A stretch of DNA of 37,132 bases from Chitinophagaceae bacterium (GCA_947455425.1 CANGOT010000001.1:1-37132); one strand, 5' to 3'; counted from the first letter of the stretch, positions 1 through 26,558 are shown. Made by a program: numbers and translations. The notes: a model not told the origin generated them from the sequence alone.

Positions 1-1206
1 GATAAACCAATTAAAGGTCATACACTAATGCAAACCATAGCAAGAGCCAACAGGGTGTATGATGATGAGAAAGAAAATGGTTTAATTGTGGACTATGGTA
101 ATGTATATAAACAATTAGAAAAAGCATATTCAGTATATGGTGAAGGTGGTACAAAAGGTGGTGGTTCAACTGGAGAAAGTGCTGGTATAGAAAGACCTTT
201 TGAATTATTGGAAGATGATGTAAAAGGATTGGCTGAATCCATTGAAAATACAAAGAACTATCTAGCTGAACTTGGTTTTATTTTGGATGAATTAACATTG
301 CCAACACTGAAACCAATGGAGAAATTAGGTTGTATAAAAAAGGCGGTTGATTGTGTTTGTTTAAATGAAACTACAAGAACCAAATATGAAGTGATGGCTC
401 GTGAAGTCTTTAGAAAATATATGGCTTTGTATCCTCAAGATGTTATTAAACCACATATCAAAAATTTTAATGCAATTGAAGCAATCTATCAACAATTAAA
501 TCAACAAACAAAAGATGCTGATGTTACTGAAATTATCAAGAGGCTTCAACAGGTTGTTGATGATAATGTAATACTTCAAAATAAATCTCTTAACGATGTT
601 ACACAAGAAGTATATGTTGATTTATCAAGATTGGATTTTGACAAACTGAGAAAAGCATTTGCTTTAACGACTAAAAAGAAGACTGTTCTATTTGATTTAC
701 AAAGAGCGGTTGATAAAAAGATGAAACAAATGTTGAAAGACAACCCAATGAGGATGGAGTTTTACAACAGATACAAAGAGATTATTGAGGAATATAACAG
801 GGGGAAAGATTTAGAAGACACTATGAAATCTTTTGATAAACTTTTCAAATTTGTTCAAGACTTAAATGTAGAAGACACCAGAGCATTGAGAGAAAATTTA
901 GATGAGGAAGCTTTAGCCATATTTGATTTACTAAGAACAGGTAAAACACTTACAACAGAGGAACTAAAAGAAGTAAAAAAAATATCGGTTGACACACTAT
1001 CAAAATTAAAAGAGGAAAAGTTGAAGATTGAACGTTGGAGAGAGAGTAGACAAATAACTGCACAAGTAAACACAATGATATTCGACTCCTTTCAGTGGTT
1101 ACCTCAAAACGCTTACACAGACAACGATGTAAAAGAAAAAGCTACCATTGTTTACCAACATATATATACCAATTATGGTAATTTCAGGATGGGTGCAAGT
1201 GCTTAA
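1..1206 (+). CDS. hsdR: Type I restriction enzyme R subunit (HsdR), C-terminal portion; the 5' end lies outside the window
   Basis: The frame is open from nt 1 (DKPIKGHTLMQTIARANRV...). QTIARANR matches SF2 helicase motif VI as seen in HsdR. A long helical C-terminal region typical of HsdR follows. TAA stop at 1204-1206. Confidence 0.8.
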   Translation, partial: DKPIKGHTLMQTIARANRVYDDEKENGLIVDYGNVYKQLEKAYSVYGEGGTKGGGSTGESAGIERPFELLEDDVKGLAESIENTKNYLAELGFILDELTLPTLKPMEKLGCIKKAVDCVCLNETTRTKYEVMAREVFRKYMALYPQDVIKPHIKNFNAIEAIYQQLNQQTKDADVTEIIKRLQQVVDDNVILQNKSLNDVTQEVYVDLSRLDFDKLRKAFALTTKKKTVLFDLQRAVDKKMKQMLKDNPMRMEFYNRYKEIIEEYNRGKDLEDTMKSFDKLFKFVQDLNVEDTRALRENLDEEALAIFDLLRTGKTLTTEELKEVKKISVDTLSKLKEEKLKIERWRESRQITAQVNTMIFDSFQWLPQNAYTDNDVKEKATIVYQHIYTNYGNFRMGASA

Positions 1207-1468
1207 TTAAAAAAATAGTTTTGTCGTAACAACAGTATATATATAAATACATATTATTAACGTCTGTAATACAATTTCAAATTACACAAACTCAGGATAC
1301 AAACATCTCAATCATCAATTCTTTAACAAGTTAACTGCTATACTTGTATTACAATTTCACTGATAAGATATTATCCCTTTCGTCAAGTGAGACCCCAAAA
1401 TTTGTCGTAACGGAATTGTATGTTTTGTCTGTTAGTTTTTCAACAAGTATTTATTATAAAAGATACCT

Positions 1469-1759
1469 ATGGAAACTGAAGAAATACTAATAAAAACATT
1501 GATTGAAGACGAAGGATTAATCATTTACCCAAAATTCAACGAACCACTTTTAACATCTGAAAAGTTCCCTTTACAATATGAATACATTGATATTTTTATT
1601 GATTTGATTTTACGAGAAGCAGATTATAATTCAGATAAAATTGGTTTCATTTCTAGCGTTGAGGAGATGAAACATTTTCTATGTTTAACGCTGAGTAAAT
1701 ATGATGAGTATAATATAAAAAAAGTGATAGAAGCCGTTGAAGACAATGAAAATAATTAA
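1469..1759 (+). CDS. Small strongly acidic hypothetical protein (96 aa)
   Basis: Clean ATG-to-TAA ORF in AT-rich DNA. 22 Asp/Glu against 9 Lys/Arg. No recognisable domain. Confidence 0.45.
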   Translation: METEEILIKTLIEDEGLIIYPKFNEPLLTSEKFPLQYEYIDIFIDLILREADYNSDKIGFISSVEEMKHFLCLTLSKYDEYNIKKVIEAVEDNENN

Positions 1760-1828
1760 CCAGTAGAAAGTCAAATTGCTGCGAGTTTGCTTAAGTCTTC
1801 ATGTAACCAAGATCTTAAGACTGAATTA

Positions 1829-2078
1829 TTGGTTGGAGCAGTAATTAACAGGGATGTAGTAATCAGGACGAGGAAGAAAAATGATCCGATAGTTTGGTTG
1901 GAGCAGTAATCTGAAAACCCTGAAACCCAAACTGGATCTAAACTGTAGATCTTCTCTCAGTATGTGTATGTTGGTTGGAGCGTTTCCTTCTACCCGGAGA
2001 AAAATGTACTAGGAGTATAATTCCGATCTCACGGGTAATGACATTTTGGTTGCAGCATATAAAGGTGGCTCCAACCAA
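1829..2078. repeat. Five copies (4 direct, 1 inverted) of the 11-nt motif TTGGTTGGAGC in non-coding DNA
   Basis: Direct copies at 1829-1839 and 1894-1904, both extended to the 17-nt TTGGTTGGAGCAGTAAT. Further direct copies at 1971-1981 and 2046-2056 (TTGGTTGcAGC). Inverted copy GCTCCAACCAA at 2068-2078. Copies 4 and 5 form an 11-11-11 inverted-repeat site. Copies 3 and 5 could form an 11-13 bp stem around 86 nt. Confidence 0.85.
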
Positions 2079-2174
2079 TAACCCTGATCTAAAGATTAAA
2101 AAAAATATGGAGAAGAATGAATTGGAGTTCACCACTCACAACAAAACTTCGTTTTAATTTCCGAGAACTACCTC

Positions 2175-2203
2175 AACTTACACTTTGTAACAAAGTATAA
2201 GTT
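2175..2203. repeat. 29-bp near-perfect palindrome AACTTAcACTTTGT-a-ACAAAGTaTAAGTT
   Basis: 13 of 14 arm positions are complementary around the centre at 2189. It lies 130 bp upstream of the recombinase ATG. An 8-bp-stem hairpin follows at 2211-2233. Confidence 0.8.
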
Positions 2204-2332
2204 AAATACAAAACCCTTACTGGTAAAGGGTTTCAGAATATTGATGTTTTTTACCCTTCAGTTAACTTAGACTTAGCATTAAATATTAGGCAAGTATTAG
2301 TTGCAGCCGTACGTTAGCACAAATAAATTTAT

Positions 2333-2923
2333 ATGAGTTTAAAAGGTCAACGTACAACAACTACTTCAATGGACTGGGATGATTTCAAAAGTCTAATCTC
2401 CAAACTTGAAAGAGATAAAGAATTTAAGTTCTGTTTACTAGTCAGTATTGGGGTATTCACTGGTCTTAGAATTAGTGATTTACTGAAATTGAATTTTAGT
2501 CAGTTTGAGGAAACAGAGATATTAAATATTCAAGAACAGAAAACAAAGAAGGTGAGGAAAATCAAAATCAATCCTGATTTAAAAGTGATTGTTGATAGGT
2601 TAAGGTCTAAAATGGGTGTTGTGGATTTAAGTACATTAATATTCGTAAATAAGTATGGTACGAAACCTATTGACAAATCTTATGTGAATGTAAAGTTGAA
2701 AGAATTGCTTAAACAATACAATGTTCAAGTTGATGGTAATGCCAGTAGTCATTTATTTAGAAAGACACTGGGTAATCGTGTATTGCGTTTAAACAACTAT
2801 TCAAATGAGGCTGTTATATTATTAATGGATTTATTTTCACATAGTAGTCCAGCAGTTACAAAGAGGTATCTTGGAATAAGGGAGAAAGAAATATATGATG
2901 TCTATGATAGTGTTAGGTTATAA
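2333..2923 (+). CDS. Short tyrosine site-specific recombinase (catalytic domain only, 196 aa; similar in size to FimB/FimE)
   Basis: Catalytic signature readable in order: GLRISDL (Arg), HLFRKT (His-x-x-Arg), SHSSPAVTKRYL (His, then the nucleophile Tyr). There is no N-terminal core- or arm-binding domain. Confidence 0.8.
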   Translation: MSLKGQRTTTTSMDWDDFKSLISKLERDKEFKFCLLVSIGVFTGLRISDLLKLNFSQFEETEILNIQEQKTKKVRKIKINPDLKVIVDRLRSKMGVVDLSTLIFVNKYGTKPIDKSYVNVKLKELLKQYNVQVDGNASSHLFRKTLGNRVLRLNNYSNEAVILLMDLFSHSSPAVTKRYLGIREKEIYDVYDSVRL

Positions 2924-2967
2924 ACAAGAGGCTGCCTTAAAATTTTGTTTTAAGGCAGCCTCTTGTT
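2923..2967. terminator. Perfect 20-bp-stem hairpin, bidirectional terminator
   Basis: AACAAGAGGCTGCCTTAAAA-ttttg-TTTTAAGGCAGCCTCTTGTT immediately after the recombinase stop, with T-rich flanks. Confidence 0.8.
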
Positions 2968-2996
2968 TTATGGAGCTTTACAAGGAAAGGTGATTT

Positions 2997-3524
2997 TTAC
3001 TTATTACAATAGCAACTATGTGGTTTTATATTTAAAAACCTAAGTTTTTGCAGCTTAAAAGCTGCAATTTTTGATTTTATTGCTGCTTTTTTGCGTAGGT
3101 TTTGACTCAAGGATAATAACCCCACTTCTACAGTAACTTTTTTAATTCCTCGTAGTATAAATCTTTTAAAGTGATGGTTGTTTTTGATGTTGCCAAATAC
3201 AGGTTCTACATCCCAACATCGCTTTTTTCGATGGGCTATTACTTCATCTGATTGGAGATTTTCTTTGGCTTGTTGTTTAAGTTTATTGATGTTGTGATTG
3301 ATGCCGATGATTCTATTGCCTTTTGATTTATGGCAAGTACCATTTAATGGGCAAGTACTGCAATTTTGTGCTTGATAGTTGGTAATGGCTTGCTTAAAAC
3401 CAGTGCTGGTTGTTTGTAGATGTGTACCTGAATTTTCTTGGACAAATCTTATTATTTCGCAAAAACTAAGATTAATTATCTCATTGCTATTTTCTACCAT
3501 TTTGAACCAAATGATCATAGGCAT
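2997..3524 (-). pseudogene. IS1182-family (IS5-like DDE) transposase remnant, C-terminal ~175 aa only
   Basis: The Cys-rich segment (NCSTCPLNGTCHKSKGNRII) and the C-terminal motif EPVFGNIKNNHHFKRFILRGIKKVTVEVGLLSLSQNLRK are characteristic of IS1182-type transposases, which are roughly 450-500 aa. The upstream part is missing or out of frame. Confidence 0.65.
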
Positions 3525-3608
3525 AGCATCTTCAAATTCTTGGTATGTCCAATGGCGAACTTTTTATGTATAAATCCCCATAATTTTTTTAAAGAAACTT
3601 CATTCATA

Positions 3609-3920
3609 TTAATAATCTACTTTTTCTAATTCTGGTGGAATTGTTTCCCCATCTTGTTTAGGTTTACCAGACGTAGGTGCAGACTCTTTATACAATTTTA
3701 TATCATATCCAGCAACACGTAACCCAACATACATAAGTATAATAATAACTAATCCAATAAACAAATACTTGTAATTGATAAAGGTTTTTTTCATAATCTC
3801 GTTACTATCAGACTTTTGTTTTGAAATTTCATTTTTAGGTATTTCTATACTAACACCACAATTAGAACAAAACTTTGAGTTATCCTTTATTTCATTACCA
3901 CAAGAATTACAGTAATTCAT
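3609..3920 (-). CDS. Zinc-ribbon membrane protein (103 aa)
   Basis: N-terminal CxxC-x12-CxxC (MNYCNSCGNEIKDNSKFCSNCG), then one hydrophobic helix (YLFIGLVIIILMYVGL). Confidence 0.55.
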   Translation of the reverse strand: MNYCNSCGNEIKDNSKFCSNCGVSIEIPKNEISKQKSDSNEIMKKTFINYKYLFIGLVIIILMYVGLRVAGYDIKLYKESAPTSGKPKQDGETIPPELEKVDY

Positions 3921-3988
3921 ATTTATTAATTTAATTTACAATATTTTTTTATACCCATCAATGTATTCAAAAATGATTTTTGTTCCTT

Positions 3989-4186
3989 CTATTCTGAAAT
4001 CCATTTTAAGGTTTTTTTCATGGTTAATTCATTCATTGTTTTATAAACACCACAAAAATTATAGCTAATAGTCTGAGATTTCAATTCCTTAAGTGTAAGT
4101 CCTCGACTTAACCTAATAGATTTAAGTCTACCACCAAGTTTTTTTAATTGAATATGTTGATTCTTATTAAACCCCATCGGGTTCAA
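3989..4186 (-). CDS. Small XRE-like helix-turn-helix protein (65 aa)
   Basis: LGGRLKSIRLSRGLTLKEL resembles the first helices of XRE/Cro-type HTH domains. A perfect 18-bp palindrome lies 27 nt upstream of its ATG. Confidence 0.45.
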   Translation of the reverse strand: MNPMGFNKNQHIQLKKLGGRLKSIRLSRGLTLKELKSQTISYNFCGVYKTMNELTMKKTLKWISE

Positions 4187-4212
4187 TAGTATTTCTTACT
4201 AAAACAAATTCA

Positions 4213-4230
4213 ATCAACGTATACGTTGAT
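4213..4230. promoter_or_regulatory. Perfect 18-bp palindrome ATCAACGTATACGTTGAT, putative operator
   Basis: Lies in the divergent intergenic region between the HTH ORF (minus strand) and the membrane-protein ORF at 4396 (plus strand). Confidence 0.5.
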
Positions 4231-4395
4231 ATTAAAAAATTAATTATTCTTGCATTTGATTATTTACAGTTAGTAGATTGAAATCATCTTTTTATTAAAA
4301 TCATTAATTGATGTTTAGGTAATCAATAAATTTAAGTAAGGTGCAAAAAGATAACCAAACTGTCGGCACTTGGAAAAAAATAGGAGAAAAACAAT

Positions 4396-5028
4396 ATGTT
4401 AAACAATAATGTAAAAAGTAATACACAATCAATAATAGAGTGGAGTGTTTTGATCCCCTATTTTTTATCAAGTGTGTTATTTGGAATAAAAGATTTTTTT
4501 AATAGTTCTATTGAGGTTTGGATTAATAATCATTGTGGTATAACATTTATAAGCCTTAGTTTACTTACACTTAGTTCTGTAGTTCTCAATTCATTTACGC
4601 TTAATCATGAAATTAGAAAATTTGATTTAGTACTAATTGCAATTCAAATTTCAATAAGTTTTTTTGTCGGTCAATGGTTTCATCATGTAGATCAATCTAT
4701 TAGAGAAGTAAAAGTTGGATATGAACCCGATATAATAGGAATTGTTGCATATAGCTTCCTTACAGCACTCTTACCAACTATAATTATAATCCTTCGTGCA
4801 CCAAATATTAGAATTGAGAACTTGGAAAAGCAACAAAAACTCATGCAGGAACAATTAGATCAGTTAAAATCAAATTCGCAAAATATTAATGAATTTGAAT
4901 ATACAGAAGGCAGCCCAATAATTCCAGGGAATCGAGTATCTTTTATGGTATTTATGGCTGTTGTTGTGTTGTTTCTTTGGCTAATCGGATACAAGCTATT
5001 AGTGATCATGAAAGTATTATTTGGATAG
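4396..5028 (+). CDS. Hypothetical multi-pass membrane protein with a central coiled-coil segment (210 aa)
   Basis: Several hydrophobic helices, a charged ENLEKQQKLMQEQLDQLK stretch, and a C-terminal helix. No recognisable domain. Confidence 0.5.
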   Translation: MLNNNVKSNTQSIIEWSVLIPYFLSSVLFGIKDFFNSSIEVWINNHCGITFISLSLLTLSSVVLNSFTLNHEIRKFDLVLIAIQISISFFVGQWFHHVDQSIREVKVGYEPDIIGIVAYSFLTALLPTIIIILRAPNIRIENLEKQQKLMQEQLDQLKSNSQNINEFEYTEGSPIIPGNRVSFMVFMAVVVLFLWLIGYKLLVIMKVLFG

Positions 5029-5118
5029 TTTTTATGTTTATTGCAGGCGCACCAGTTGGCGCTTTAGTTGGCTGGTTTTTTACATCTAATGTTGAAGAAA
5101 TTAGAAAAAAGTAACTCT

Positions 5119-5150
5119 TTATAGTTGCATCTTTCGTCATTAAGGGGAGC
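5119..5150 (+). repeat. Copy A of a conserved 32-nt motif TTATAGTTGCAtCTTTCgTCATTAAGGGGAGC
   Basis: 30/32 identical to 11631-11662. Identity stops at the unrelated terminator hairpin that follows. Confidence 0.85.
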
Positions 5151-5160
5151 CATAATGGAC

Positions 5161-5186
5161 AAGAGGTCGTTTTCGACCTCTTTTTT
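5161..5186 (+). terminator. Intrinsic terminator hairpin plus T-tract
   Basis: AAGAGGTCG-tttt-CGACCTCTT followed by TTTTTT. Confidence 0.7.
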
Positions 5187-5431
5187 ATTTTCTGACTTTT
5201 CCAAAACCTTACTGGCATTGAATAGTACATTGATAGGTGTTGTAAAATGAGTAGTTGCAACTCTTCCTTTTTCTAACCTTCATTTTTAAATTACTTTTAC
5301 TATAATCAAGGTTACTTGAACACCTATATTATGTTTTAAGTCTATGAGAAAATGATTTAATATCGATTTAAAAATTAAATTCTAAAGAATTGCATACTTA
5401 GACTATTCTTTGTAAATACAAAAATTAGTAA

Positions 5432-5725
5432 TTAATATAAATCCTCTGAAAATAGCTCTTCATTCGTAAAACCAAAGATTCCGCCAGTTTGCTCAAATAT
5501 CCTTGCACCTTGTTTTCTGTCTACAAATCTTCCAATACTAGTCAAAAAACCGTGAACATATTCACCACATTCCAACAAATGCTTTTTATGTAAAACGGTC
5601 ATTTGGCTACTAATTTGGTTGTGTCTGTATCCACAGAGTACGATTCCTTTATTGATGTTTACAGGTCCGAGAGCAGCTGCTTCAAAATCTTTGAACCAGA
5701 TGGCTGCACAAAGTATTTTCTCCAT
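5432..5725 (-). CDS. Hypothetical 97-aa protein, last gene of the WYL-led cluster
   Basis: Clean ORF with no domain I can name. Notable motifs are CGYRH and a C-terminal LFSEDLY. Confidence 0.55.
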   Translation of the reverse strand: MEKILCAAIWFKDFEAAALGPVNINKGIVLCGYRHNQISSQMTVLHKKHLLECGEYVHGFLTSIGRFVDRKQGARIFEQTGGIFGFTNEELFSEDLY

Positions 5726-5784
5726 ATAATAATTTGTATTTTATTAAGGAATTACCACTTGAATAGAATGGTTTGACAAATACA

Positions 5785-6219
5785 TTAGTTAATAGATGTT
5801 TTTATATAAAAATTCTCTAGTTCTAATTTTAATATTTCTATTTCTCTTTTATATTTCTCCACTAGTTTATCTCTTTCTGTTAGTGTTATTTCCGAAACAT
5901 ATACCCTTATATCCTTATAGTCTATTTCATCTTTCCATATCCCTTCAGCACAGCTTAATTCTTTAAGTGTCCTTACAAGTCGTTTTAGTTTTTTCAACCT
6001 GAATTGAGAATCTAAAACATTCGTACTTGCTTTATAAATAGCTGTTTTCAATGCAACAATTTCATCGGTAAGTTGCAGGAATTTTTCCATACTTTCTTTC
6101 GAAGAATAGTGTCTTGTAGCGTGGTCTTCTGCAGTATTATACCTGAATATTTTCTCAGCTTCTTCTTCTAGGTTAATATCCAACTTCTTTTTTAGCTTTA
6201 AAGCCTCTTTAATCGTCAT
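5785..6219 (-). CDS. 144-aa coiled-coil protein, possibly DIP1984/septicolysin-like
   Basis: The N-terminal KEALKLKKKL, the heptad-rich charged sequence and the length resemble my recollection of DIP1984-family proteins. This is weak and made by eye only. Confidence 0.5.
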   Translation of the reverse strand: MTIKEALKLKKKLDINLEEEAEKIFRYNTAEDHATRHYSSKESMEKFLQLTDEIVALKTAIYKASTNVLDSQFRLKKLKRLVRTLKELSCAEGIWKDEIDYKDIRVYVSEITLTERDKLVEKYKREIEILKLELENFYIKTSIN

Positions 6220-6272
6220 TTCTTAAGTTAAAAACACTATTATATTGTATATTTAATATCACTATAAAGCCT

Positions 6273-7205
6273 TTAGCTAATCTTATTTAAGTCATTCAAC
6301 TTCGATAAATATAAATTTAAATCTTGTGTTCGACCATAACTTTTATCTTGCCTTATCTGCTCCATAGCTATAAATAAATTCTTCCAACTAAAATTACCGT
6401 GCTTCATAATATCTATATGTTTATGATAAGGGTTAGATTGACCTACAAGCAAATTCTCAAACATAAATTTCAGTCTTATGGAATCAGAATCATTCAAAAT
6501 GAAAAAATACGCTATTACTTGTGCTAACCCCTCTAATAATTCATTTGGATTTGGTGTTAACCACCAAAATCTATCATCCCATCTTAACTCTTTAGTATCC
6601 AACATCCAATGCGTTATCCAATGTCCCAATTCATGCCAGAAAACAATTTTATAAAGCATGTCCGAACAGTCATCTTCGCTAATTAATCCTACAAAAGAAT
6701 TGCTTGAGTATTTAGAAAAGAATTCCTTTGCATATTCTTCAATACAAATTTTATAAAGAATAATTTTCCCCTCAGCACTTACACCATCATTTTGGTAAAC
6801 TCCTAATAGGTCAAAAATATTATCATGGTTTTTATACCTGCATGGTTCATTAGAAATATCTATTTTACTCGGAATAATAAAGAAATTAGTTGGCGGATCA
6901 GTCTTATTGCCACCACTTAAATAATCAAAAGAATTAAATAACATGGTAATATCTTCATCAGTTATACCATTTTCTTTAAGAAAGCTTTTTATTTTTCTTT
7001 GCATTTCATCATCAACTTTTTTATATTCGAAACAGTGATGATAAATTTGACATATAATAATAAGGTCAATTTGTATAAATTCAATTAATTTTTTAGGTAT
7101 TCCGATTTCAGGGTCAATTTCATAATCATTTCCCCATCCTGTTAATTTAAATAATTTATCTACAGCCTTTTGTGCTTCTTCTTGTAATGTTGTAATTGTT
7201 GTCAT
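6273..7205 (-). CDS. 310-aa putative zinc metallopeptidase-like protein (HEXXH; ImmA/IrrE M78-like motif)
   Basis: FWHELGHWITHW contains HELGH. A NELLEGLAQVIAYFF segment lies about 27 aa downstream, like the E..AN.FA element of ImmA/IrrE peptidases. The N-terminal ~190 aa is unassigned. Confidence 0.6.
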   Translation of the reverse strand: MTTITTLQEEAQKAVDKLFKLTGWGNDYEIDPEIGIPKKLIEFIQIDLIIICQIYHHCFEYKKVDDEMQRKIKSFLKENGITDEDITMLFNSFDYLSGGNKTDPPTNFFIIPSKIDISNEPCRYKNHDNIFDLLGVYQNDGVSAEGKIILYKICIEEYAKEFFSKYSSNSFVGLISEDDCSDMLYKIVFWHELGHWITHWMLDTKELRWDDRFWWLTPNPNELLEGLAQVIAYFFILNDSDSIRLKFMFENLLVGQSNPYHKHIDIMKHGNFSWKNLFIAMEQIRQDKSYGRTQDLNLYLSKLNDLNKIS

Positions 7206-7402
7206 TGTCTATTGTTTTTATGTTTAAAATGAATTTATAAGAAATTAGTAAACTTTTCTGTATCAAATTTTCAAGAAGTATTACTTAAATTAACCAGTAC
7301 AAATGTTAACCAACCCATCATTTCAAACTCTTCTATTAATTTATCTAAATTATTGTTTAAGTAATGGAAGTCGAAGAATATTTGAGGCATATTGATTTTG
7401 AT

Positions 7403-8125
7403 TTATATAATAGCACAATTAAACAGATTTAATATAGGGCTATTGGTGGCACAAGCTGATGAAAGGGTATAACGAGGCATTGCACCACATATACCTGCTG
7501 GCTTCAAAACTATTTTATTACAAATATTTAAGTTTGCAGTTATCATATCATAAACAACCCTGTCAGCAACTTTAGTACCCATTAATATTGTTCTAACTAT
7601 TGGAGCGTTACATATTAAAGGGCAAATTGGTGTCAATACAAATGGAATAAAATAATTAGAAAATAAGTACTCCATAAGCTTTATATATCTAACACTACTT
7701 CGGTTGATTTTAATCATAAAAGGCAAAGGTGAAATATCGTCTAAATAAAAGCCTGCACCTGCTAAATCATTTATTGCTAATGTTTTGTTTATTGGTGTAC
7801 GCGGACTATTGATTAAAAAAGCATGGGTAGGAAAAAAATGTTGAAGTGGAACATTGAACCATGCAGTGTTATTAATAGCTGTAGTAGAATAGAAATATGT
7901 ACCACTTGTTGTAGGTGGAGGTGCTTCTCCTATTGCAAAATAAGGGATACAACCATATTTAACTAATACTATGTTTCTGTAATTATTTCTTGCATTATAT
8001 CTTATGACGTAGTCATTGTAAATTGCTCCAAATTGATTTGGATTGTTCATTATTTGACCAAATATTCCATTATATATATTATTGGCTTGAATTATAATTT
8101 GCATTAACTGTACTTGTGTTAGCAT
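7403..8125 (-). CDS. 240-aa hypothetical protein: charge-poor, Asn/Tyr/Phe-rich, with a Cys-rich C-terminus
   Basis: A 723-nt open frame in AT-rich DNA with no competing ORF. About 8 acidic residues in total, 8 Cys mostly in the last 70 aa, and no recognisable domain. Confidence 0.6.
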   Translation of the reverse strand: MLTQVQLMQIIIQANNIYNGIFGQIMNNPNQFGAIYNDYVIRYNARNNYRNIVLVKYGCIPYFAIGEAPPPTTSGTYFYSTTAINNTAWFNVPLQHFFPTHAFLINSPRTPINKTLAINDLAGAGFYLDDISPLPFMIKINRSSVRYIKLMEYLFSNYFIPFVLTPICPLICNAPIVRTILMGTKVADRVVYDMITANLNICNKIVLKPAGICGAMPRYTLSSACATNSPILNLFNCAII

Positions 8126-8160
8126 AATTGTTTATTTTAATGTAAATGTATATTTAAAAT

Positions 8161-9081
8161 TTATTTGAGTTTTTTAATGTAATCGTTCAGCACTCTTTTC
8201 TGAATGTACTCTTTTATCAACTTTTTTGCTTCTTGCGATTCTAATACTTCAATCTCGTTTAGGAGTCCTGTAATAAATCTGGCAATTGGTTGTATATCGA
8301 ACACCTGTATAGTAAGAATGTAATGATGTATAGGCTTTGATTCTAGTGTGAGGTACTTTTCCATGATAGGAAACTGACGAGTTAGAAGTGATGTAGCAAA
8401 AATGGTAAGTTTCAATTTTACATCAATAACCTTACCAGTATCATGAAATCCAAACAAATCAAATTTATGGTTTCTTTCTACCCACTTAGGATAAGTCTCT
8501 GCTTTAATTTCAGTAGGATAAACATCAAACATCCTTTCTAAATTAAATGCTTTGGTAATTTTCTTATCCTTTACATAACAAAAGACCTTTAGATTTTTTT
8601 CGTCAAGATGAACTGGAGTAAGATATATGTTTTTAAGTAATGCTTCTCTTGAATGATATTCCCCAATTTGAATTTGGGTTTTTGCTTTCAAAGCTTTCTT
8701 TATATTTATTAATATTATAGAAAGTGCTGTTGTATCCTTAAAGTTGTATATGATTAACTTTAATAGTTTATTAGAAAGATCCTGCGGAATGTTTTTGCTT
8801 TTCAACAACTCACTATTGATAATTTTTACATCATTCTCCGAAAACTCTGGAAGCAATGTAGCATTATCATCCTCTATTTTATACGCAACCTCTTTACTCC
8901 GTTTTTTAAGAACAGGAATGTTATCATTCTTAAGCTCTTTAATCAGTAAATAAATTGTTTTCCTTGTAACATTCATCTTTGTTACTAACTCTTTTATTGG
9001 CACAAATTCCTGACCCCTTAAATATATCTGTAGCTTTCTTTTAATAAGTAATGTTTTGGAATACTCTCCCCTTTTTTTCAT
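8161..9081 (-). CDS. WYL-domain transcriptional regulator (wHTH + WYL + C-terminal extension; BrxR/CapW/PafBC-like)
   Basis: N-terminal wHTH (VPIKELVTKMNVTRKTIYLLIKELK). Central WYL-like pattern (IGEYHSRE..NIYLTPVHL..KVFCYV..ITKAFNLERMFDV). C-terminal IARFITGLLNEIEVLES resembles the WCX-type extension. The likely start is MKKRGEY at 9081; the ORF track extends to 9138. Confidence 0.7.
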   Translation of the reverse strand: MKKRGEYSKTLLIKRKLQIYLRGQEFVPIKELVTKMNVTRKTIYLLIKELKNDNIPVLKKRSKEVAYKIEDDNATLLPEFSENDVKIINSELLKSKNIPQDLSNKLLKLIIYNFKDTTALSIILINIKKALKAKTQIQIGEYHSREALLKNIYLTPVHLDEKNLKVFCYVKDKKITKAFNLERMFDVYPTEIKAETYPKWVERNHKFDLFGFHDTGKVIDVKLKLTIFATSLLTRQFPIMEKYLTLESKPIHHYILTIQVFDIQPIARFITGLLNEIEVLESQEAKKLIKEYIQKRVLNDYIKKLK

Positions 9082-9085
9082 GAAA

Positions 9086-9093
9086 CAAATATA
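9086..9093 (-). promoter_or_regulatory. Bacteroidota -7 box TATATTTG (TAnnTTTG) just upstream of the regulator ATG
   Basis: Plus-strand CAAATATA at 9086-9093. The same geometry is seen upstream of the ABC-F gene. Confidence 0.35.
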
Positions 9094-9219
9094 TTTCGCA
9101 CTTGTTATGTAAAAAAATAGAAATGGATAATGTAACATTTTAGAATAAAATATATTAACATTTAGTTTTCTGCAAAAGCTGTAAAATCGGCACTAAAAGG
9201 AGTTTTTAGTTGATTTAAA

Positions 9220-9238
9220 TATGTTACATTGTAACATA
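9220..9238. promoter_or_regulatory. 19-bp palindrome tATGTTACA-t-TGTAACATa, putative operator
   Basis: 9-bp arms. An extra half-site, TGTAACAT, lies at 9131-9138. Both sit in the divergent region upstream of the WYL regulator. Confidence 0.5.
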
Positions 9239-9312
9239 ATGTTCGAAACTCGGTTATTTAACCAACATACTTTCGCCTAATAAAATTAGAATCAAACAAC
9301 AATCAAGCAAAC

Positions 9313-9519
9313 ATGAAAAAGTTTCTATTTATCAGTTTTCTTAGTATTCTAATAGCAAACCTCCCAAAGAATGGATTTTCGCTTCCTCCTGCTAATAGTA
9401 TTCATCAGGCAAATTACTTAAATGTAAAATGTTATTGGTGTGGGAATGCCATAAGAGCAAAGAAAACAAAGGATACTTATTGGTCTTCGGATAAAGATAT
9501 TTATTATAAGTACGAATAA
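9313..9519 (+). CDS. Small secreted protein (68 aa)
   Basis: N-terminal signal-like MKKFLFISFLSILIANL, plus a CYWC motif. Confidence 0.45.
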   Translation: MKKFLFISFLSILIANLPKNGFSLPPANSIHQANYLNVKCYWCGNAIRAKKTKDTYWSSDKDIYYKYE

Positions 9520-9556
9520 ATATTTGTAAAACAATAGTCATTATAAAAATTAACTA

Positions 9557-10762
9557 ATGCCATACATCATCAACAAACAAGGACGGAAAGTAAGTAACAT
9601 TTACGATGAAATTCTCCCCTTCTCTGAAGGATATGCCGCCTTCAGGGATAAGGATAAATGGGGTATGCTAGGTTTAGATGGAGAGATTGCAATTCCTGCT
9701 ATGTATCAGCAATGCAAATGCTTTACAGCAGGTTTAGCACCTGCTAAAATGAATGATAAATTTGGTTTCATCAATCCAAAAAACGAGGTTGTCATTGCAT
9801 TCGTTTATGATGATGCAAGAAACTTCTATGGGGGTTACGCATCTGTAAAGCAAGGAGAATACTGGACAGCAATCAACATAGAAGGTAAACCTTTAACAGA
9901 CTTCAAATTTAAATTTATAACTTGGTTCTTTGATGGTATTGCTGGGGTGTTTATCAATGGAAGATGGACTTATATAGATACTTTAGGAAAAGAAATAATT
10001 CCTTTAAAATATAAAATGGTAAGCCCTTTTTATAATGGATTTGGCACTATAAAAGACGATAATAATAAATGTGGTATAATAGATATAACAGGTGTCATAA
10101 TAGTACCTTGCCAGTATGATGAAATACTGAATGTGATGGAAGATTTTGTAGCTATACGTAATGGCAAACTATGGGGTTTTTTGAATATGCTGACTGCAAC
10201 AATAGAAATCCCTTTTCAGTTTAAGGATGTAAAATTAGGTTTTAAAAATGACGTTTGTTTTATTAAAAAAGGAGAACATTATGGTGCCATTAATAAGAAA
10301 GGAGAACAAGTACTCCCCTTTGTTTTTCTAGATGTAAAAACACCATCAAAATTCTTTCAAACGCCTTTCAGCGAGGGACTCGCTGTAGTTTCGCTTGATA
10401 AAGACAAAGGAATGATAGATGCAAATAACCAAATAGTTGAGAACTTGGATTATGACCCCAATAATTATCTTGAATTCAATTTAAAATGGAATAGAGGCAA
10501 CAAACCCACCAGTTCATTCAATTTATTTTTATGGGGAATAATTAGTATTCAGGATTCTGATACCGGCAAAGTTATTCTACCTTTTAAATACCGAAAAATA
10601 GAAGACTATAGTAATGGTCTCGCACTGATAAAAGACATAAATCATAGTGGCTATGTAGACACCAGTGGAAATATGGCAATTCCTTTAGCCGACTATGGTA
10701 TTGCTACTTCATTCTCCGAAGACAGAGCTGTTGTTGACACACATAATTATTATGACTATTAA
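9557..10762 (+). CDS. WG-repeat (KWG-type) protein, 401 aa
   Basis: Recurrent units such as DKWGMLGLDGEIAIPAMYQ, DKFGFINPKNEVVIAFVYDD, GKLWGFLN and HYGAINKKGEQVLPFVF. Confidence 0.7.
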   Translation: MPYIINKQGRKVSNIYDEILPFSEGYAAFRDKDKWGMLGLDGEIAIPAMYQQCKCFTAGLAPAKMNDKFGFINPKNEVVIAFVYDDARNFYGGYASVKQGEYWTAINIEGKPLTDFKFKFITWFFDGIAGVFINGRWTYIDTLGKEIIPLKYKMVSPFYNGFGTIKDDNNKCGIIDITGVIIVPCQYDEILNVMEDFVAIRNGKLWGFLNMLTATIEIPFQFKDVKLGFKNDVCFIKKGEHYGAINKKGEQVLPFVFLDVKTPSKFFQTPFSEGLAVVSLDKDKGMIDANNQIVENLDYDPNNYLEFNLKWNRGNKPTSSFNLFLWGIISIQDSDTGKVILPFKYRKIEDYSNGLALIKDINHSGYVDTSGNMAIPLADYGIATSFSEDRAVVDTHNYYDY

Positions 10763-10771
10763 AATTTAAAT

Positions 10772-10930
10772 ATGAAAAAAGATACAAATATTGACACTGG
10801 ACTATTTTTCCTTTTTGGTATTGTGGGATGGATTTTAAAAATCATTTTTCTGATATTGCTATTCCCATTTCGTGTTTTGATTTACAGAAATAATCCACTT
10901 AATGTAAAACGGGTGAAAATTATTAAATAA
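10772..10930 (+). CDS. 52-aa membrane peptide (below the ORF-track cutoff)
   Basis: ATG at 10772 and TAA at 10928-10930. MKKDTNIDTGLFFLFGIVGWILKIIFLILLFPF is hydrophobic. It is packed tightly between flanking genes. Confidence 0.35.
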   Translation: MKKDTNIDTGLFFLFGIVGWILKIIFLILLFPFRVLIYRNNPLNVKRVKIIK

Positions 10931-10958
10931 ATTAATACTCATAACTTAATGCTTATTT

Positions 10959-11492
10959 ATGGAACCATGGACAGGATTTGATAAAGGAAATGAAGAAATT
11001 TTGGCTGAAATCTATTCCTTTAAACAAGAGTTTTTTGACCATCAAGTAATATTAATGAAAGCCAAAGGTGTAACATATTTTCAGGATAGATGGGATATGG
11101 ATCAATGCCAGCAAATTAGCTATGCTTATGAGGCTTTAATTTATTACAAAAATGAAAACCAATTAAAGAAATATGAGTTTGTCAGAGAATTATTAAACCA
11201 ACAAACAGACAGCTACCCAATACCAAAGCCAACTGCTTTTGCCAATGATTATTTTAGCCTTATGGAAAAGTATGGCATTGACTTCTTTTTAAAAAGAGAA
11301 AAAGGCGAAGAAATATTTTATGTAAGTTGTGCGTATGAACTTTTAATCTATTATATGCAGGAAGAACAATATGAAAGGTGTTCTTATATTCAATATTTAA
11401 TTGACAAACTGAAAAGCTATTTTCCAAGAGTCCTATCCCATATTGTTGAAAATAATAAGCTAAAACCAGTGGTAACTTATTCAAAAAGATGA
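10959..11492 (+). CDS. 177-aa hypothetical protein with an internal duplication
   Basis: ISYAYEALIYYKNENQLKKYEFVRELL is repeated as VSCAYELLIYYMQEEQYERCSYIQYLI. It ends in tandem TGA-TAG-TAA. Confidence 0.55.
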   Translation: MEPWTGFDKGNEEILAEIYSFKQEFFDHQVILMKAKGVTYFQDRWDMDQCQQISYAYEALIYYKNENQLKKYEFVRELLNQQTDSYPIPKPTAFANDYFSLMEKYGIDFFLKREKGEEIFYVSCAYELLIYYMQEEQYERCSYIQYLIDKLKSYFPRVLSHIVENNKLKPVVTYSKR

Positions 11493-11630
11493 TAGTAAGA
11501 AAATATTCTTAAATATCACAATCTATTCAAAATAACCCACAAACACCTATATTTTTAATACTAAACTTCCTCTCACTCTACAAGAAGTTTAAACCAAGAA
11601 ACCTACAAGTTTTACTAGTGAATTAAGGTA

Positions 11631-11662
11631 TTATAGTTGCAACTTTCATCATTAAGGGGAGC
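11631..11662 (+). repeat. Copy B of the conserved 32-nt motif TTATAGTTGCAaCTTTCaTCATTAAGGGGAGC
   Basis: 30/32 identical to 5119-5150. Confidence 0.85.
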
Positions 11663-11663
11663 G

Positions 11664-11697
11664 AAAAAAGCATTTCAAATTTTGAAATGCTTTTTTT
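11664..11697. terminator. Bidirectional terminator (A6, palindromic stem GCATTTCAAA/TTTGAAATGC, T7)
   Basis: Read directly from the sequence. Confidence 0.7.
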
Positions 11698-11726
11698 ATT
11701 TTATTGAATTGGTCTATCATAAAAAT

Positions 11727-11757
11727 AAAAAACGGCTCTTTTAAGGAGCCGTTTTTT
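11727..11757. terminator. rpoB terminator (A6-CGGCTCT-tttaa-GGAGCCG-T6), bidirectional
   Basis: Hairpin with flanking A and T tracts, 28 nt downstream of the rpoB stop. Confidence 0.75.
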
Positions 11758-11784
11758 ATTGTATAAAATCTTAGTTTATTAAGC

Positions 11785-14700
11785 TTACTCAAACTTTAAG
11801 TCTAAGCCTAAACCTCTTAATTCGTGAACCAATACATTGAATGATTCAGGAACACCTGGTCTAGGGATATTATCGCCTTTTACAATAGCTTCATAAGTTT
11901 TTGCACGACCAATAATATCATCAGATTTCAGTGTTAATAATTCTTGTAAAATATTGGCTGCACCATATGCTTCTAATGCCCAAACCTCCATCTCACCAAA
12001 TCTTTGACCACCAAACTGAGCCTTACCACCAAGAGGTTGTTGAGTAATCAAACTGTATGGTCCAATGCTACGAGCGTGCATTTTATCATCCACCATATGG
12101 TGTAATTTAATTACGTAGATAACACCTACTGTTGCTTTTTGGTGGAATCTCTCACCTGTTTCGCCATCATAAAGGTGTGTATGACCATTTAAAGGAATTC
12201 CGGCTTCTTTACACAAGTTTTCAATTTCAGTAGTGCTAGCACCATCAAAAATTGGCGTTGCATATTTTCTACCTAGTTTTAAGCCTGTCCAACCTAAAAT
12301 GGTTTCATAAATCTGACCCAAGTTCATACGAGAAGGTACACCCAATGGATTCAACACAATATCAACCGGTGTTCCATCTTCCATAAATGGCATATCCTCG
12401 GCACGAACAATTTTAGCAACGATACCTTTATTTCCGTGACGACCCGCCATTTTATCACCCACTTTCAATTTACGCTTAACGGCAAGATAAACTTTAGCAA
12501 GTTTTAATACACCAGCTGGTAATTCATCACCAATTGAAATATTAAATTTATCTCTTTTAAATCTACCTAACTCTTCATTAAACTTAATCGTATAGTTATG
12601 TAATAAAGTATTAATGGCTTGGTCTACTTTTTCTTCACCAGTCCAACCCAAAGGGTTAATACCGTGAACATCTAAAGAAGCCAGATTTTTTTGGTTGAAC
12701 TTAACTCCTTTACCTATCAAAGTTTCTCCATAACTATTAGTAACACCAGCAGATGTTTTATCTCTTAGCAAGATCGTTAATTTTCCAACTAACTGTTCTT
12801 TTAGATCATCTACTACTAAATTATGGGCTTTCTCTACTTTTTCTAAAGCCGCTTTTTCACGAACTTTAGAGTTTTTATCTTTTTTCGCTCTTTGGAATAA
12901 TTTTTTATCGATAACAGTTCCTTCTGTTCCATTTGGAGCTTTTAAAGAAGCATCTTTTGCATCACCTGCTTTGTCTCCAAAGATCGCACGTAAAAGTTTT
13001 TCTTCCGGAGTTGGATCACTTTCTCCTTTAGGAGTAATTTTTCCAATTAAAATATCACCTTCCTTAATTGTTGCACCAATTCTGATGATACCATTTTCAT
13101 CAAGGTCTTTAGTTGCTTCCTCGCTAATATTGGGAATATCAGAAGTTAATTCTTCTTCGCCTAATTTAGTATCTCTTACCTCTAATTCATATTCATCGAT
13201 GTGTAAAGAAGTAAACAAATCCTCTCGAACAACTTTTTCATTAATTACAATGGCATCCTCGAAGTTATACCCTTTCCAAGGCATAAATGCAACAACTAAA
13301 TTTCTTCCTAAAGCTAACTCACCATTTTGAGTAGCATAACCCTCAGTTAAGAAGTCTCCTTTTTTAACTTTTTGTCCTTTTTTAACAGCAGGACGCAAAT
13401 TGATACAAGTAGATTGGTTGGTTTTAACAAATTTAGTTAGTTTATAAACTATCAAATCATCGTGAAAAGATATTAGTCTATCATCATCATTTCTATCGTA
13501 ACGAATATGAATTTCTCTTGAATCAACAAACTCAACAACCCCATTTCCTTCTGCGTGAATTTGAATACGAGCATCTAATGCTGCTTTTGCTTCTAGTCCA
13601 GTACCTACAATTGGAGCATCCATTCTAATCAATGGCACAGCTTGACGTTGCATATTTGATCCCATCAAAGCACGGTTGGCATCATCATGTTCCAAGAAGG
13701 GAATTAATGAAGCAGAAAGACCTACAATTTGATTTGGAGCAACGTCCATATATTGAACATCTGCTTTATCTAAAATTGGAAAATCTCCAGTATCTCTACT
13801 CACAATTTTTGCTTCTAAGAAATTACCTTTATCATCTATTGGTGTATTACTTTGTGCAATTTTTTTATCTTCTTCCTCTTCAGCACTCATATACTTAAAC
13901 TCTTTCAAATTCACCTTGCCATTATCAACTTTACGATAAGGAGTTTCAATGAATCCCATATCATTAATAGCAGCATGAACGCAAAGTGTTGAAATCAAAC
14001 CAATGTTTGGACCTTCTGGAGTTTCAATTGTACATAAACGACCGTAGTGAGAATAGTGTACGTCACGAACCTCGAAACCAGCTCTTTCTCTACTCAAACC
14101 ACCAGGTCCTAATGCTGAAATACGACGTTTGTGTGTAATTTCAGAAAGAGGATTCGTTTGATCTAAGAATTGAGATAGCTGAGATGTACCAAAGAATGAG
14201 TTAATAACAGAAGAAAGTGTACGAGCATTAATCAAATCAACTGGTGTAAATACCTCGTTGTCACGAACATTCATTCTTTCACGAATAGTACGAGCCATAC
14301 GAGCTAAACCAACACCAAATTGTGCATACAATTGTTCTCCAACAGTTCTAACACGACGATTTGATAAATGATCAATATCATCAATCTCAGCCTTAGCGTT
14401 TGTTAAACGCACTAAGTATTTAATGATTTCGATAATATCTTGTTTCGTCAATACTTTTTTCTCAATAGGAATAGCGTGTTCTAGTTTTCTGTTGATTTTG
14501 TAACGACCAACTTCTCCTAAATCATAACGCTTATCACTAAAGAATAATTTATCGATAATACCACGTGCAGTTTCGTTATCCGGAGCATCTGCACCACGCA
14601 ATTGGCGATAGATATGCTGAACCGCCTCTAACTCACTATTAGAAGTATCTTTATTTAATGTATTGTAGATAATTGCATAGTCTCCACCTAATTCCTCTTT

Positions 14701-15588
14701 TTGAATGAAGATACTTTCTATACCCATTTCAACAATAGTATCAATACCATCTTCATCCAAAACTGTATCACGCTCCATTACAATTTCGTTACGCTCAATA
14801 CTAACAACCTCTCCTGTATCTTCATCTACGAAATCTTCAACCCAAGTTCTTAAAACGCGGGCTGCAAGTTTTCTACCAACATGAGGTTGAAGTGCTTCAG
14901 CATCCACAGTAATTTCATCAGCCATTCCAAAAAGCTCAAGAATGTCTTTATCAGTTTCAAAACCAATTGAACGCAATAAGGTGGTTACAGGGAACTTTTT
15001 CTTTCTATCAATGTAAGCATACATTACATTGTTAATATCTGTAGCAAATTCCATCCAGGCTCCTTTAAAAGGAATTACACGGGCAGAATAAATTTTAGTA
15101 CCATTAGGGTGTGTTGATTGACCAAAGAATACACCTGGAGAACGATGTAATTGAGAAACAATTACACGCTCTGCACCATTCACAACAAAAGTACCACGAG
15201 GTGTCATATAAGGAATATTTCCCAAAAACACATCTTGTACAATTGTTTGGAAATCTACGTGCTCTTCATCATTACAACTCAATCGCAGCTTAGCTTTTAA
15301 AGGCACCGCATACGTTAATCCACGCTCCATACACTCAACAATCGAGTAACGTGGCGGATCAATAAAATAGTCTAGAAACTCTAAAACGAAAATGTTACGA
15401 GTATCAGTAATAGGAAAGTTTTCCTTGAATACTTTAAACAATCCCTCGTTGTTACGCTTATCCGGCGTAGTTTCTAATTGAAAAAACTCTCTGAAAGATT
15501 CTAGTTGAATATCTAGTAAATCAGGAGCTGCTGCTAGGTGTTTTGTTTTACCAAAGTTAATCCTAGTATTTAAGGTTGTTGTAGACAT
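11785..15588 (-). CDS. rpoB: DNA-directed RNA polymerase beta subunit (1267 aa)
   Basis: Full-length, with unmistakable RpoB blocks ([69 protein letters not shown]). Confidence 0.98.
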
Positions 15589-26514: not shown

Positions 26515-26558
26515 TATCAATAACTTATTTCTGGTATATAAAACCATAAGGTATAGTA

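Follow-up and report, generated by a model that had tools for sequence, protein, structure and literature searches.

Here we analyze a group of five co-directional genes at positions 5432-9238 of a 37,132-nucleotide stretch of DNA from a Chitinophagaceae bacterium (GCA_947455425.1 CANGOT010000001.1:1-37132), the whole of which is referred to as the window. A reading of the sequence alone (the original prediction) had proposed an operon led by a WYL regulator and otherwise composed of four unassignable proteins, one of them an ImmA/IrrE-like protein with a HELGH motif. Based on profile searches, structure models, and comparisons with homologous loci, this locus looks like a real, very rare, and undescribed conflict- or stress-type module, for which we infer a mechanism. 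At its center is the recurrent association of the HELGH protein (p310) with p240-family proteins, WYL regulators, p177-type proteins, and WG-repeat proteins.

Gene content and regulation of the locus

Open reading frame (ORF) calls agree with the predicted arrangement of five minus-strand genes separated by gaps of 35, 197, 53, and 59 nt (Table 1). The ratio of nonsynonymous to synonymous substitution rates (dN/dS) was 0.05-0.45 for these five genes as well as for the genes of WG401 and p177 (Nei-Gojobori method, against orthologues on related metagenomic contigs), and we therefore regard all of them as real, constrained genes. The genes of p68, WG401, and p177 are transcribed divergently from a palindrome upstream of the WYL gene and lie outside the coordinates 5432-9238. 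The nine-gene block from 5432 to 11492 is syntenic in two related metagenomic loci, L001 and L009, and partly in a third, L007. Its flanks are unrelated, with dnaN and recX in L001, and rpoB and insertion sequence (IS) remnants in the window.

Table 1. Positions of the genes and sites discussed, counted from the first nucleotide of the window
Feature	Position	Strand	Remarks
wHTH-WYL(-WCX) transcription regulator	8161-9138	minus	325 aa as listed; probable true start 9081 (306 aa)
p240, charge-poor, from a rare alpha/beta family with motifs hhIGEAP and hhhDhxPhP	7403-8125	minus	240 aa
Gap between p240 and p310 genes, indel junction	7206-7402		197 nt
p310, HExxH zinc-metallopeptidase-like, helix HELGHWITH and downstream Glu in EGLAQ	6273-7205	minus	310 aa
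p144, highly charged helical protein	5785-6219	minus	144 aa
p97, small protein of the phage-borne family phrog_839	5432-5725	minus	97 aa
Candidate WYL operator, 19-bp perfect palindrome	9220-9238		divergent intergenic region
Extra ATGTTACA half-site over the first ATG of the mechanical ORF	9131-9138	minus	kept in L001 and L009
p68, signal-peptide-like small protein, first gene of the divergent operon	9313-9519	plus	shorter than the 114-aa orthologues
WG401, cytoplasmic WG_beta_rep protein (8 repeats)	9557-10762	plus	Pfam E = 2.4e-64
p177, tandem duplication of a module of ~85 aa ending in EEYEKCAxhR	10959-11492	plus	

As predicted, the first gene encodes a WYL regulator. Its N-terminal winged helix-turn-helix (wHTH) domain is matched by Pfam HTH_11 (E = 7.6e-7, 29.4 bits at a cut-off of 25), and its WYL domain by the PADLOC models PDLC01652 (E = 3e-8) and PDLC01457 (E = 2e-7). 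The Pfam WYL profile gave no match to the window regulator and matched the homologous regulators of loci L016 and L036. A WCX domain is weakly indicated (PF25583, E = 0.015, 16.1 bits, below the cut-off of 23.9), and a search of solved WYL regulators among Protein Data Bank (PDB) sequences returned no match to the window protein. Overall, the window WYL gene is an ordinary member of the WYL-regulator class. The protein is 95% identical in L001 and L009, with dN/dS of 0.15-0.27. In an alignment of upstream regions, the 19 codons preceding the ATG at 9081 overlap conserved non-coding sequence, so that this ATG is probably the true start.

The palindromic site noted upstream in the original prediction is a perfect 19-bp palindrome, TATGTTACA-A-TGTAACATA, identical in L001 and with one mismatch in L009. 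This conservation is not specific to the palindrome because the whole intergenic region is 82% identical. The half-site ATGTTACA occurs eight times in the window against 2.5 expected, and four of these eight occurrences fall within 8965-9237. Other WYL genes of the loci compared here have palindromes of their own with different sequences (L015, perfect, 9+9; L036, 13+13). We consider the 19-bp palindrome a candidate operator of the WYL regulator.

The HELGH and p240 families

The family of p310, which we call the HELGH family, has 33 members among 5.8 billion protein clusters. It is represented by two loci in GTDB (one genome per species, 185,579 species), one of these in a Chitinophagaceae metagenome-assembled genome, and by 17 loci in JGI metagenomes; Aquirufa ecclesiirivi (Cytophagales) is a cultured carrier. 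Among the viral contigs of IMG/VR, there was no match to the HELGH family. For the p240 family, 49 proteins were identified when 1.84 billion representatives were scanned exhaustively with HMMER.

For the analysis of co-conservation, ORFs were called in all fetched loci and assigned with iterative family hidden Markov models (HMMs), which gave 24 non-redundant HELGH loci. The counts of neighbors are lower bounds, since many of these loci are on short contigs. A p240-family gene abuts the HELGH gene in 12 of the 24 loci at distances of 7-335 nt, upstream in eight and downstream in four, and this adjacency spans 27-69% HELGH identity. Conversely, starting from the p240 homologues P0040 and P0044, HELGH was again the adjacent gene. 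A p177-type gene (~85 aa) lies near HELGH in 13 loci and a WG_beta_rep gene in eight. At least ten loci have a WYL regulator within 3.2 kb of HELGH, directly upstream in L005, L008, and L016. The pairing of a WYL regulator with an ImmA/IrrE-like protein, emphasized in the original prediction, is thus recurrent and not an accident of the window. Distant p240-like genes are also found beside WYL genes (L036 and L037). Two architectures can be distinguished. Type A is (WYL)-p240-HELGH as in the window. In type B, (WYL)-HELGH is followed directly 3' by a single-module p177-type gene of 86 aa, with a WG-repeat gene downstream (L016-L019 and L021).

By contrast, the five genes did not hold together as a unit. 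The p144 gene accompanies HELGH in six of the 24 loci and the p97 gene in four to five, both traveling along only in the closest relatives, and the full five-gene set is confined to three to four close metagenomic relatives. The co-conservation anticipated in the original prediction therefore applies to HELGH with p240, WYL, p177-type, and WG-repeat genes, but not to p144 and p97, and it includes two genes, p177 and WG, that are on the opposite strand in the window. Synonymous divergence (dS) between the window and L001 is 0.07 for WYL, 0.11 for p240, 0.47 for p144, 0.67 for HELGH, 0.78 for WG, 1.26 for p97, and 1.6 for p177. This mosaic implies recombinational exchange inside the block and indicates that the WYL-p240 segment was replaced recently by recombination.

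Five residues of p310 (H191, E192, H195, H199, and E225) show no variation across 23 homologues, and C122 and C154 show almost none. E225, in EGLAQ, is a Glu of the third-ligand type and aligns to the EAQADLFA segment of CapP. The sole match of the p310-family profile among PDB sequences was CapP (7t5t, E = 0.13), with HELGHWITH aligned to HELGHYILH and EGLAQLF to EAQADLF. In an hhalign comparison with seven annotated ImmA/IrrE (CapP-type) plasmid proteins, HELGH gave P = 3.3e-4 over 16 columns only, and block-shuffles that kept this 16-column block intact reproduced the score. A PADLOC match of p310 to RmrA (E = 0.013) was likewise limited to residues 148-207 in the HELGH region. An NCBIfam match of residues 49-91 to "RNA polymerase subunit F" was dismissed (E = 6.8e-4, 19.5 bits against a cut-off of 182). 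The AlphaFold 2 (AF2) model of p310 is confident, with a predicted local distance difference test score (pLDDT) of 85.7 and a predicted template modeling score of 0.83. When it was compared by Foldseek with BFVD, the match of highest probability was an IrrE-N-like protein of phage PBS1, at an E-value of only 1.1. The ImmA/IrrE likeness proposed earlier thus stands for the active-site helix and the downstream Glu, and not for the Pfam profile, the fold, or an HTH partner; that is, p310 passes the motif tests for MEROPS family M78 and fails the profile, fold, and partner tests. We classify p310 as metallopeptidase-like (HExxH+E), its M78-type active-site helix being set in a scaffold that is otherwise unrecognized.

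The N-terminal ~100 aa of p310 are present only in the closest relatives. In two loci, the HELGH gene is split into two ORFs (L009 6446-7333, 79+199 aa; L011 685-1579, 84+200 aa), which means either that the N-terminal extension can be separated from the rest or that the two copies are in decay. Locus L015 (5939-8549) contains HELGH paralogues of 270 and 285 aa with a 291-aa uncharacterized gene between them, and a divergent gene for a 453-aa WYL protein, from which they are separated by the perfect 9+9 palindrome (5844-5864).

The description of p240 as charge-poor and rich in Asn and Cys was borne out by its composition (10% charged residues, 10.8% Asn, and 7 Cys). Members of its family share, in this order, hhIGEAP after a predicted strand, YFY, an L..L...G(I/F) helix, and an invariant Asp in hhhD-h-x-P-h-P. 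The predicted strand 60-66 is followed by GEAP, of which E67 and A68 hardly vary in 12-sequence alignments and E67 likewise in a 52-sequence alignment, and the invariant Asp130 is at the end of the next predicted strand. We took hhIGEAP to resemble motif A of uracil-DNA glycosylases (UDG; GEAPG in family 4) and the Asp to correspond presumably to the base-recognition position of strand 2, and this likeness was then tested.

As is characteristic of UDG motif A (G-x-x-P-G type), which comes directly after strand beta-1, hhIGEAP follows a predicted strand. The distant family member P0084 (IIGEAPP ... GFYLMDLYPFP), which matches the window p240 with a phmmer E-value of 1e-7 in the 52-sequence set, aligned to Pfam UDG (PF03167) with E = 3.9e-4 and 21 bits, below the cut-off of 24.3, over profile positions 5-120 of 141 (116 positions). 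UDG was the sole nucleic-acid-enzyme family among the Pfam matches for 52 p240-family members. An hhalign comparison of the 52-sequence alignment with seven phage family-4 UDG domains gave 100 co-linear columns with P = 0.012. The low-confidence model of p240 has four strands, each followed by helices, and SMUG1 came third in a Foldseek search with it (E = 0.8). Top matches of the Foldseek searches to PPAR, RabGGTase, and pantothenate synthetase were regarded as noise (E > 0.4). Whether p240 adopts a UDG-like (DNA-glycosylase) fold is in our judgment about evenly balanced, and p240 would at best be a very remote branch of the UDG superfamily. The invariant Asp would then presumably occupy the place of the uracil-recognizing Asn of UNG. 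An Asn-to-Asp change at the uracil-recognition site of UNG gives cytosine specificity, which provides a lead only.

The 197-nt gap between the p240 and p310 genes is the junction of a clean indel of ~633 bp, at which L001 (7283-7915) encodes a 221-aa p240 paralogue.

Accompanying genes and genomic setting

When p240, p310, p144, and p97 were searched against Pfam, NCBIfam, PHROGs, and PADLOC, the only matches were phrog_839 for p97 and marginal ones to RmrA and DIP1984. PDB-sequence phmmer and profile searches with p240, p144, p97, and the WYL protein gave nothing meaningful. As had been stated in the original prediction, none of the four proteins downstream of the WYL gene has an effector domain recognized by Pfam, PADLOC, or NCBIfam. 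Their description as unassignable needs amendment for p97, which belongs to the phage family phrog_839/PF26092, and tentatively for p240 with respect to the UDG superfamily.

The p144 protein is helical with 39% charged residues, and no relatives of it were found outside the cluster. Its assignment to DIP1984 was rejected (E = 0.39), and the p144 family profile finds nothing among PDB sequences. The p97 protein matches phrog_839 (E = 5.1e-14), and the L001 orthologue, which is 91% identical, bears a precomputed match to PF26092 (T4_Y16D). By tblastn, p97 has homologues in the jumbo phages PAU and pT24 and in one crAss-like phage; in PAU and pT24, the homologue adjoins Pnk and is near an RNA ligase gene. 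In Tenacibaculum phage pT24 (L039), it is located at 3989-4321 directly after the polynucleotide kinase gene, in a region of nucleic-acid repair and counter-defense. With dN/dS of 0.05, p97 is the most constrained protein of the set. By their distribution, p144 and p97 are lineage-specific additions. Of the divergently encoded proteins, p68 has a signal-peptide-like N-terminus and ends at 68 aa in comparison to 114 aa in L001 and L009, and is thus probably truncated in the window. We take the EEYEKCAxhR end of p177-type proteins to be UVR-like, for which Pfam gave no confirmation.

The accessory mosaic described in the original prediction was found to comprise integrase and IS fragments and an AT-rich island, but only a C-terminal fragment of hsdR at the window edge. 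The G+C fraction is 0.28-0.31 across 3001-12000 in comparison to 0.33-0.40 in the housekeeping genes to the right. In the left flank, the first part of the ORF at 1-1206 corresponds to the end of a domain of type I R subunits (T1R_D3-like, E = 3.8e-6). It is accompanied by a tyrosine recombinase in truncated form (2333-2923) and by part of a DDE transposase (2997-3524). No tRNA or Rfam elements were detected in the window. A mobile-element origin was considered and dismissed given that there were no matches in viral contigs, phages (p310 and p240), or plasmids (p310).

Around the homologous loci, 124 flanking ORFs were scanned with Pfam and PADLOC. Pfam identified WYL (3), AAA (3), AAA_14/DUF4143, HipA_C, integrases, DUF3987, DUF5618, and housekeeping genes; PADLOC identified WYL (5), IetA-like ATPases (3), PDC-S01 (2), PDC-S26, SoFic, and type II methyltransferases. 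These neighborhoods fit accessory or defense islands, short of a formal enrichment statistic. A reading of the small-gene arrays as polymorphic-toxin/immunity islands was rejected, as none of the 124 neighboring ORFs has a toxin or immunity domain. Locus L036 (1-12639 of ENA contig_21313), with a distant p240-like gene, contains two WYL regulators that are each followed by small unannotated genes, and an IetA-like AAA ATPase; ARPP-1 and AAA_14 genes are adjacent. Overall, this locus resembles an array of uncharacterized mini-proteins led by WYL genes.

Other features of the window were noted in passing. The gene rpoB (1267 aa, minus strand, 11785-15588) has no rpoC after it and lacks the usual upstream ribosomal-protein genes. 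The place at which rpoC would be expected is exactly that of the accessory block 1-11492. Either the two genes are separated by an island of at least 11 kb, or the genome is unusually arranged. A histidine kinase is seemingly split, with HATPase_c in the ORF 34552-35010 and the start of HisKA at the very end of the ORF 35170-35844, and may be a frameshifted pseudogene beside its response regulator (33875-34552). At 16477-17670, a lone 397-aa ATP-grasp protein corresponds to no more than the first two domains of the large chain of carbamoyl-phosphate synthase, and in the region 26002-29177, the gene of an ORF6N (KilA-N-like) protein is directly 3' of a cyanophycin synthetase gene.

Relation to known systems and possible role

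A search of PADLOC-DB v2 with the five window proteins returned only WYL and the marginal RmrA match. No already named defense system was thus identified, in line with the expectation stated in the original prediction, and in the literature that we searched, there was no description of WYL, M78-like, p240, and p177/WG proteins in combination. The window regulator resembles BrxR and CapW in its wHTH and WYL domains (with a weak WCX), its position as the first gene, the palindrome in its own promoter region, and the island context. It differs in that the genes downstream are not those of BREX, CBASS, or any PADLOC system. Moreover, WYL regulators of the window type recurrently have an M78-like protein as their companion, whereas in CBASS such a protein serves as a regulatory alternative to CapW.

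In comparison to the M78 pairs ImmA/ImmR, IrrE/DdrO, and CapP/CapH (MEROPS M78, COG2856), p310 shares the helix HELGHxhxH and, ~30 residues further downstream, a Glu that is part of E-x-x-A-x-x-F. Like CapP, which uses a cysteine-switch loop (PMC13228613), it has conserved Cys upstream of the motif. However, p310 has neither a GAF domain nor an HTH domain, and neither a Pfam M78 match nor a Foldseek match to CapP or IrrE structures. In addition, no XRE-type or other HTH substrate gene adjoins HELGH. In all seven CapP-type loci fetched, an HTH gene is immediately upstream, whereas HELGH genes follow WYL or p240-family genes and have WYL, p240-family, and p177-type neighbors.

Brig1, Brig2, and Brig3 are defense glycosylases with a UDG fold, Brig3 having the operon partner BapA (PMC11078745; 10.1101/2025.10.29.685425; 10.64898/2026.02.25.707755). 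If p240 has a UDG fold, the locus would be similar in that its glycosylase-like protein is small, is encoded in an accessory island rich in AT, and has an operon partner, as for Brig3. In contrast, p240 is without sequence similarity to solved UDG or Brig chains, the window copy is unusually charge-poor, and the partner is a HExxH protein and not an ASCH-type hydrolase. RosmerTA (RmrT/RmrA) is comparable in the tight coupling of a protein with a zinc-peptidase motif to a second gene in defense islands, and in the weak match of the RmrA HMM. This match covers the HExxH region only, p310 lacks the HTH, and there was no match to RmrT. Finally, as for PafBC and DriD, a WYL sensor is located beside genes of a possible DNA-repair flavor, namely, the UDG-like motif and the UVR-like motif that we assume without confirmation by Pfam. 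PafBC and DriD are conserved chromosomal regulators of large regulons, whereas the block examined here is a very rare, mobile-looking 6-kb unit.

We tentatively favor the interpretation of the locus as a WYL-repressed, signal-induced conflict module in which a UDG-like protein acts on DNA and is controlled or complemented by an M78-like peptidase partner. The WYL repressor, on the 19-bp palindrome between the divergent operons, would silence both. A nucleic-acid signal of infection or DNA damage would release it, possibly single-stranded DNA (ssDNA) by analogy with CapW/BrxR, which sense ssDNA as CapP does (PMC13228613). The p240-type protein would then act on bases in DNA, which might be modified bases of phages as in the case of Brig1-3. 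The peptidase-like partner, presumably encoded on the same transcript, might activate the p240-type protein, restrain it, clean up after it, or cleave a regulator. The divergent p68-WG401-p177 operon, in the same conserved neighborhood, would belong to the same regulon. What we observed directly is the make-up of the locus, its co-conservation, purifying selection on its genes, the motifs, the conserved palindrome, and its absence from libraries of known systems; operator binding, the inducing signal, the glycosylase and peptidase activities, the peptidase substrate, and a role in defense are inferred from these.

A number of observations weigh against this interpretation. For p310, there was no match to Pfam Peptidase_M78 at E <= 1, and its likeness to M78 is confined to the 16-residue helix. 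Structure prediction, suggested earlier as a check, gave a p310 model that is confident but has no fold match: the best Foldseek match in the PDB had an E-value of 2.3 and was no peptidase, and nothing in BFVD was significant. The p240 model was too poor to use (pLDDT 51). The window p240 itself has no match to Pfam UDG, p240-family profiles found no UDG or Brig chains among PDB sequences at E <= 10, and no conserved His-Pro-Ser was recognized in p240-family alignments as the HPS-type motif B that follows strand beta-4 in the four-stranded alpha/beta/alpha fold of the UDG superfamily. The hhalign score of the p240 family against UDG domains was reached by two of 40 block-shuffles, and this comparison is only suggestive because the GEAP block alone can give the score. 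With dN/dS of 0.45, the window p240 is under relaxed constraint, and the window has lost by deletion the 221-aa p240 paralogue that is usually the direct partner of HELGH. Given these two points and its charge-poor composition, the window copy of p240 may be decaying. Half of the HELGH loci are without p240 and have a p177-type gene instead. By tblastn, no homologue of p310 or p240 was found in the phage collection and none of p310 in the plasmid collection.

Alternatively, the locus might serve in the response to DNA damage or stress and not in phage defense, with a PafBC/DriD-like WYL regulator that senses ssDNA and induces a repair glycosylase (p240), the peptidase, and small UVR-motif proteins for the upkeep of the host genome. 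An ssDNA response is known for WYL regulators of the PafBC, DriD, and CapW types (PMC13228613), p240 bears a UDG-like motif, p177-type proteins end in a motif that may be UVR-like, and L001 and L002 adjoin dnaN and recX, as L024 does RecC and UvrD-like genes. However, a housekeeping response should be widespread, whereas only 33-49 members of these families are present among billions of proteins, and two of 185,579 species genomes contain them; the differing flanks of close relatives, the mosaic dS, and the AT-rich setting scarred by mobile genetic elements also argue against this, and we consider it unlikely. Tight coupling of HELGH and p240 in either order with gaps of 7-61 nt, the patchy distribution, and the island context would suit a selfish pair similar to toxin-antitoxin or addiction systems. 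In such a pair, p240 would be a toxic DNA-modifying enzyme and the HExxH protein its antidote or controller, as in RosmerTA-type antitoxins, under transcriptional control by WYL. The weak match of the HELGH region to RmrA, the RosmerTA antitoxin, points in the same direction, and the lost 221-type partner and the split HELGH genes of L009 and L011 fit the decay typical of toxin-antitoxin loci. Yet the RmrA match covers 60 residues at E = 0.013, HELGH has no HTH, and there is no RmrT-like toxin. Distant p240-like genes without HELGH, and the half of HELGH genes without p240, are unexpected for an obligate pair, which makes this explanation quite unlikely.

M78 peptidases are paired with the repressors that they cleave in ImmA/ImmR, IrrE/DdrO, and CapP/CapH (PMC13228613). 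It is conceivable by comparison that HELGH cleaves the WYL repressor upon a damage signal and thereby triggers excision, transfer, or cargo expression of a mobile element. WYL adjoins HELGH in L005 and L016, and integrase and transposase remnants are nearby. We regard such a switch as very improbable: the upstream partner in seven of seven CapP-type loci is an HTH gene, with WYL here in its stead, the conserved block contains no integrase, relaxase, replication, or conjugation gene, and plasmid, phage, and viral-contig collections gave no matches. Scarcely credible to us is the remaining alternative of no functional unit at all, that is, unrelated genes whose synteny reflects the close kinship of a few freshwater Bacteroidota genomes. 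It accounts for the restriction of the complete five-gene set to relatives of 63-95% identity (L001, L007, and L009) and for p144 and p97 not being tied to HELGH more widely. The links of HELGH to p240, WYL, p177, and WG, by contrast, last to 27-38% HELGH identity in varied orders and with varied flanks, so that for the core this alternative is already largely refuted. The remaining probability belongs to an explanation not yet imagined.

A more far-reaching version is a previously undescribed two-part effector. It would comprise an M78-like zinc peptidase obligately coupled to a base-targeting enzyme of UDG fold, under a WYL sensor and helped by UVR-motif mini-proteins and WG-repeat proteins. 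We rate this version as rather improbable. The peptidase might in this case be the first ImmA-type protease with a WYL repressor as its substrate, or it might process or activate the glycosylase or remove glycosylase-DNA adducts. If true, this would constitute a new defense architecture joining CapW-like and CapP-like logics, which are otherwise alternatives; that the cassette is an outright new architecture is a prospect we hold with considerable doubt.

The window copy may be partly decayed, as it lacks the 221-aa paralogue and its p68 is truncated, and loci of the L001 type are therefore better suited to experimental work. The module is extremely rare, its carriers being freshwater Bacteroidota that are essentially uncultured, and its general importance is limited for this reason. 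Studies of WYL-led operons have been fruitful in the discovery of new anti-phage systems, and the recognition of UDG-fold glycosylases as antiviral effectors is recent. The module described here contributes two protein families without a Pfam model, one of them with a confident predicted fold and no structural relative. If active, it would represent a new combination of effector and partner, and possibly a new substrate class of M78 peptidases.

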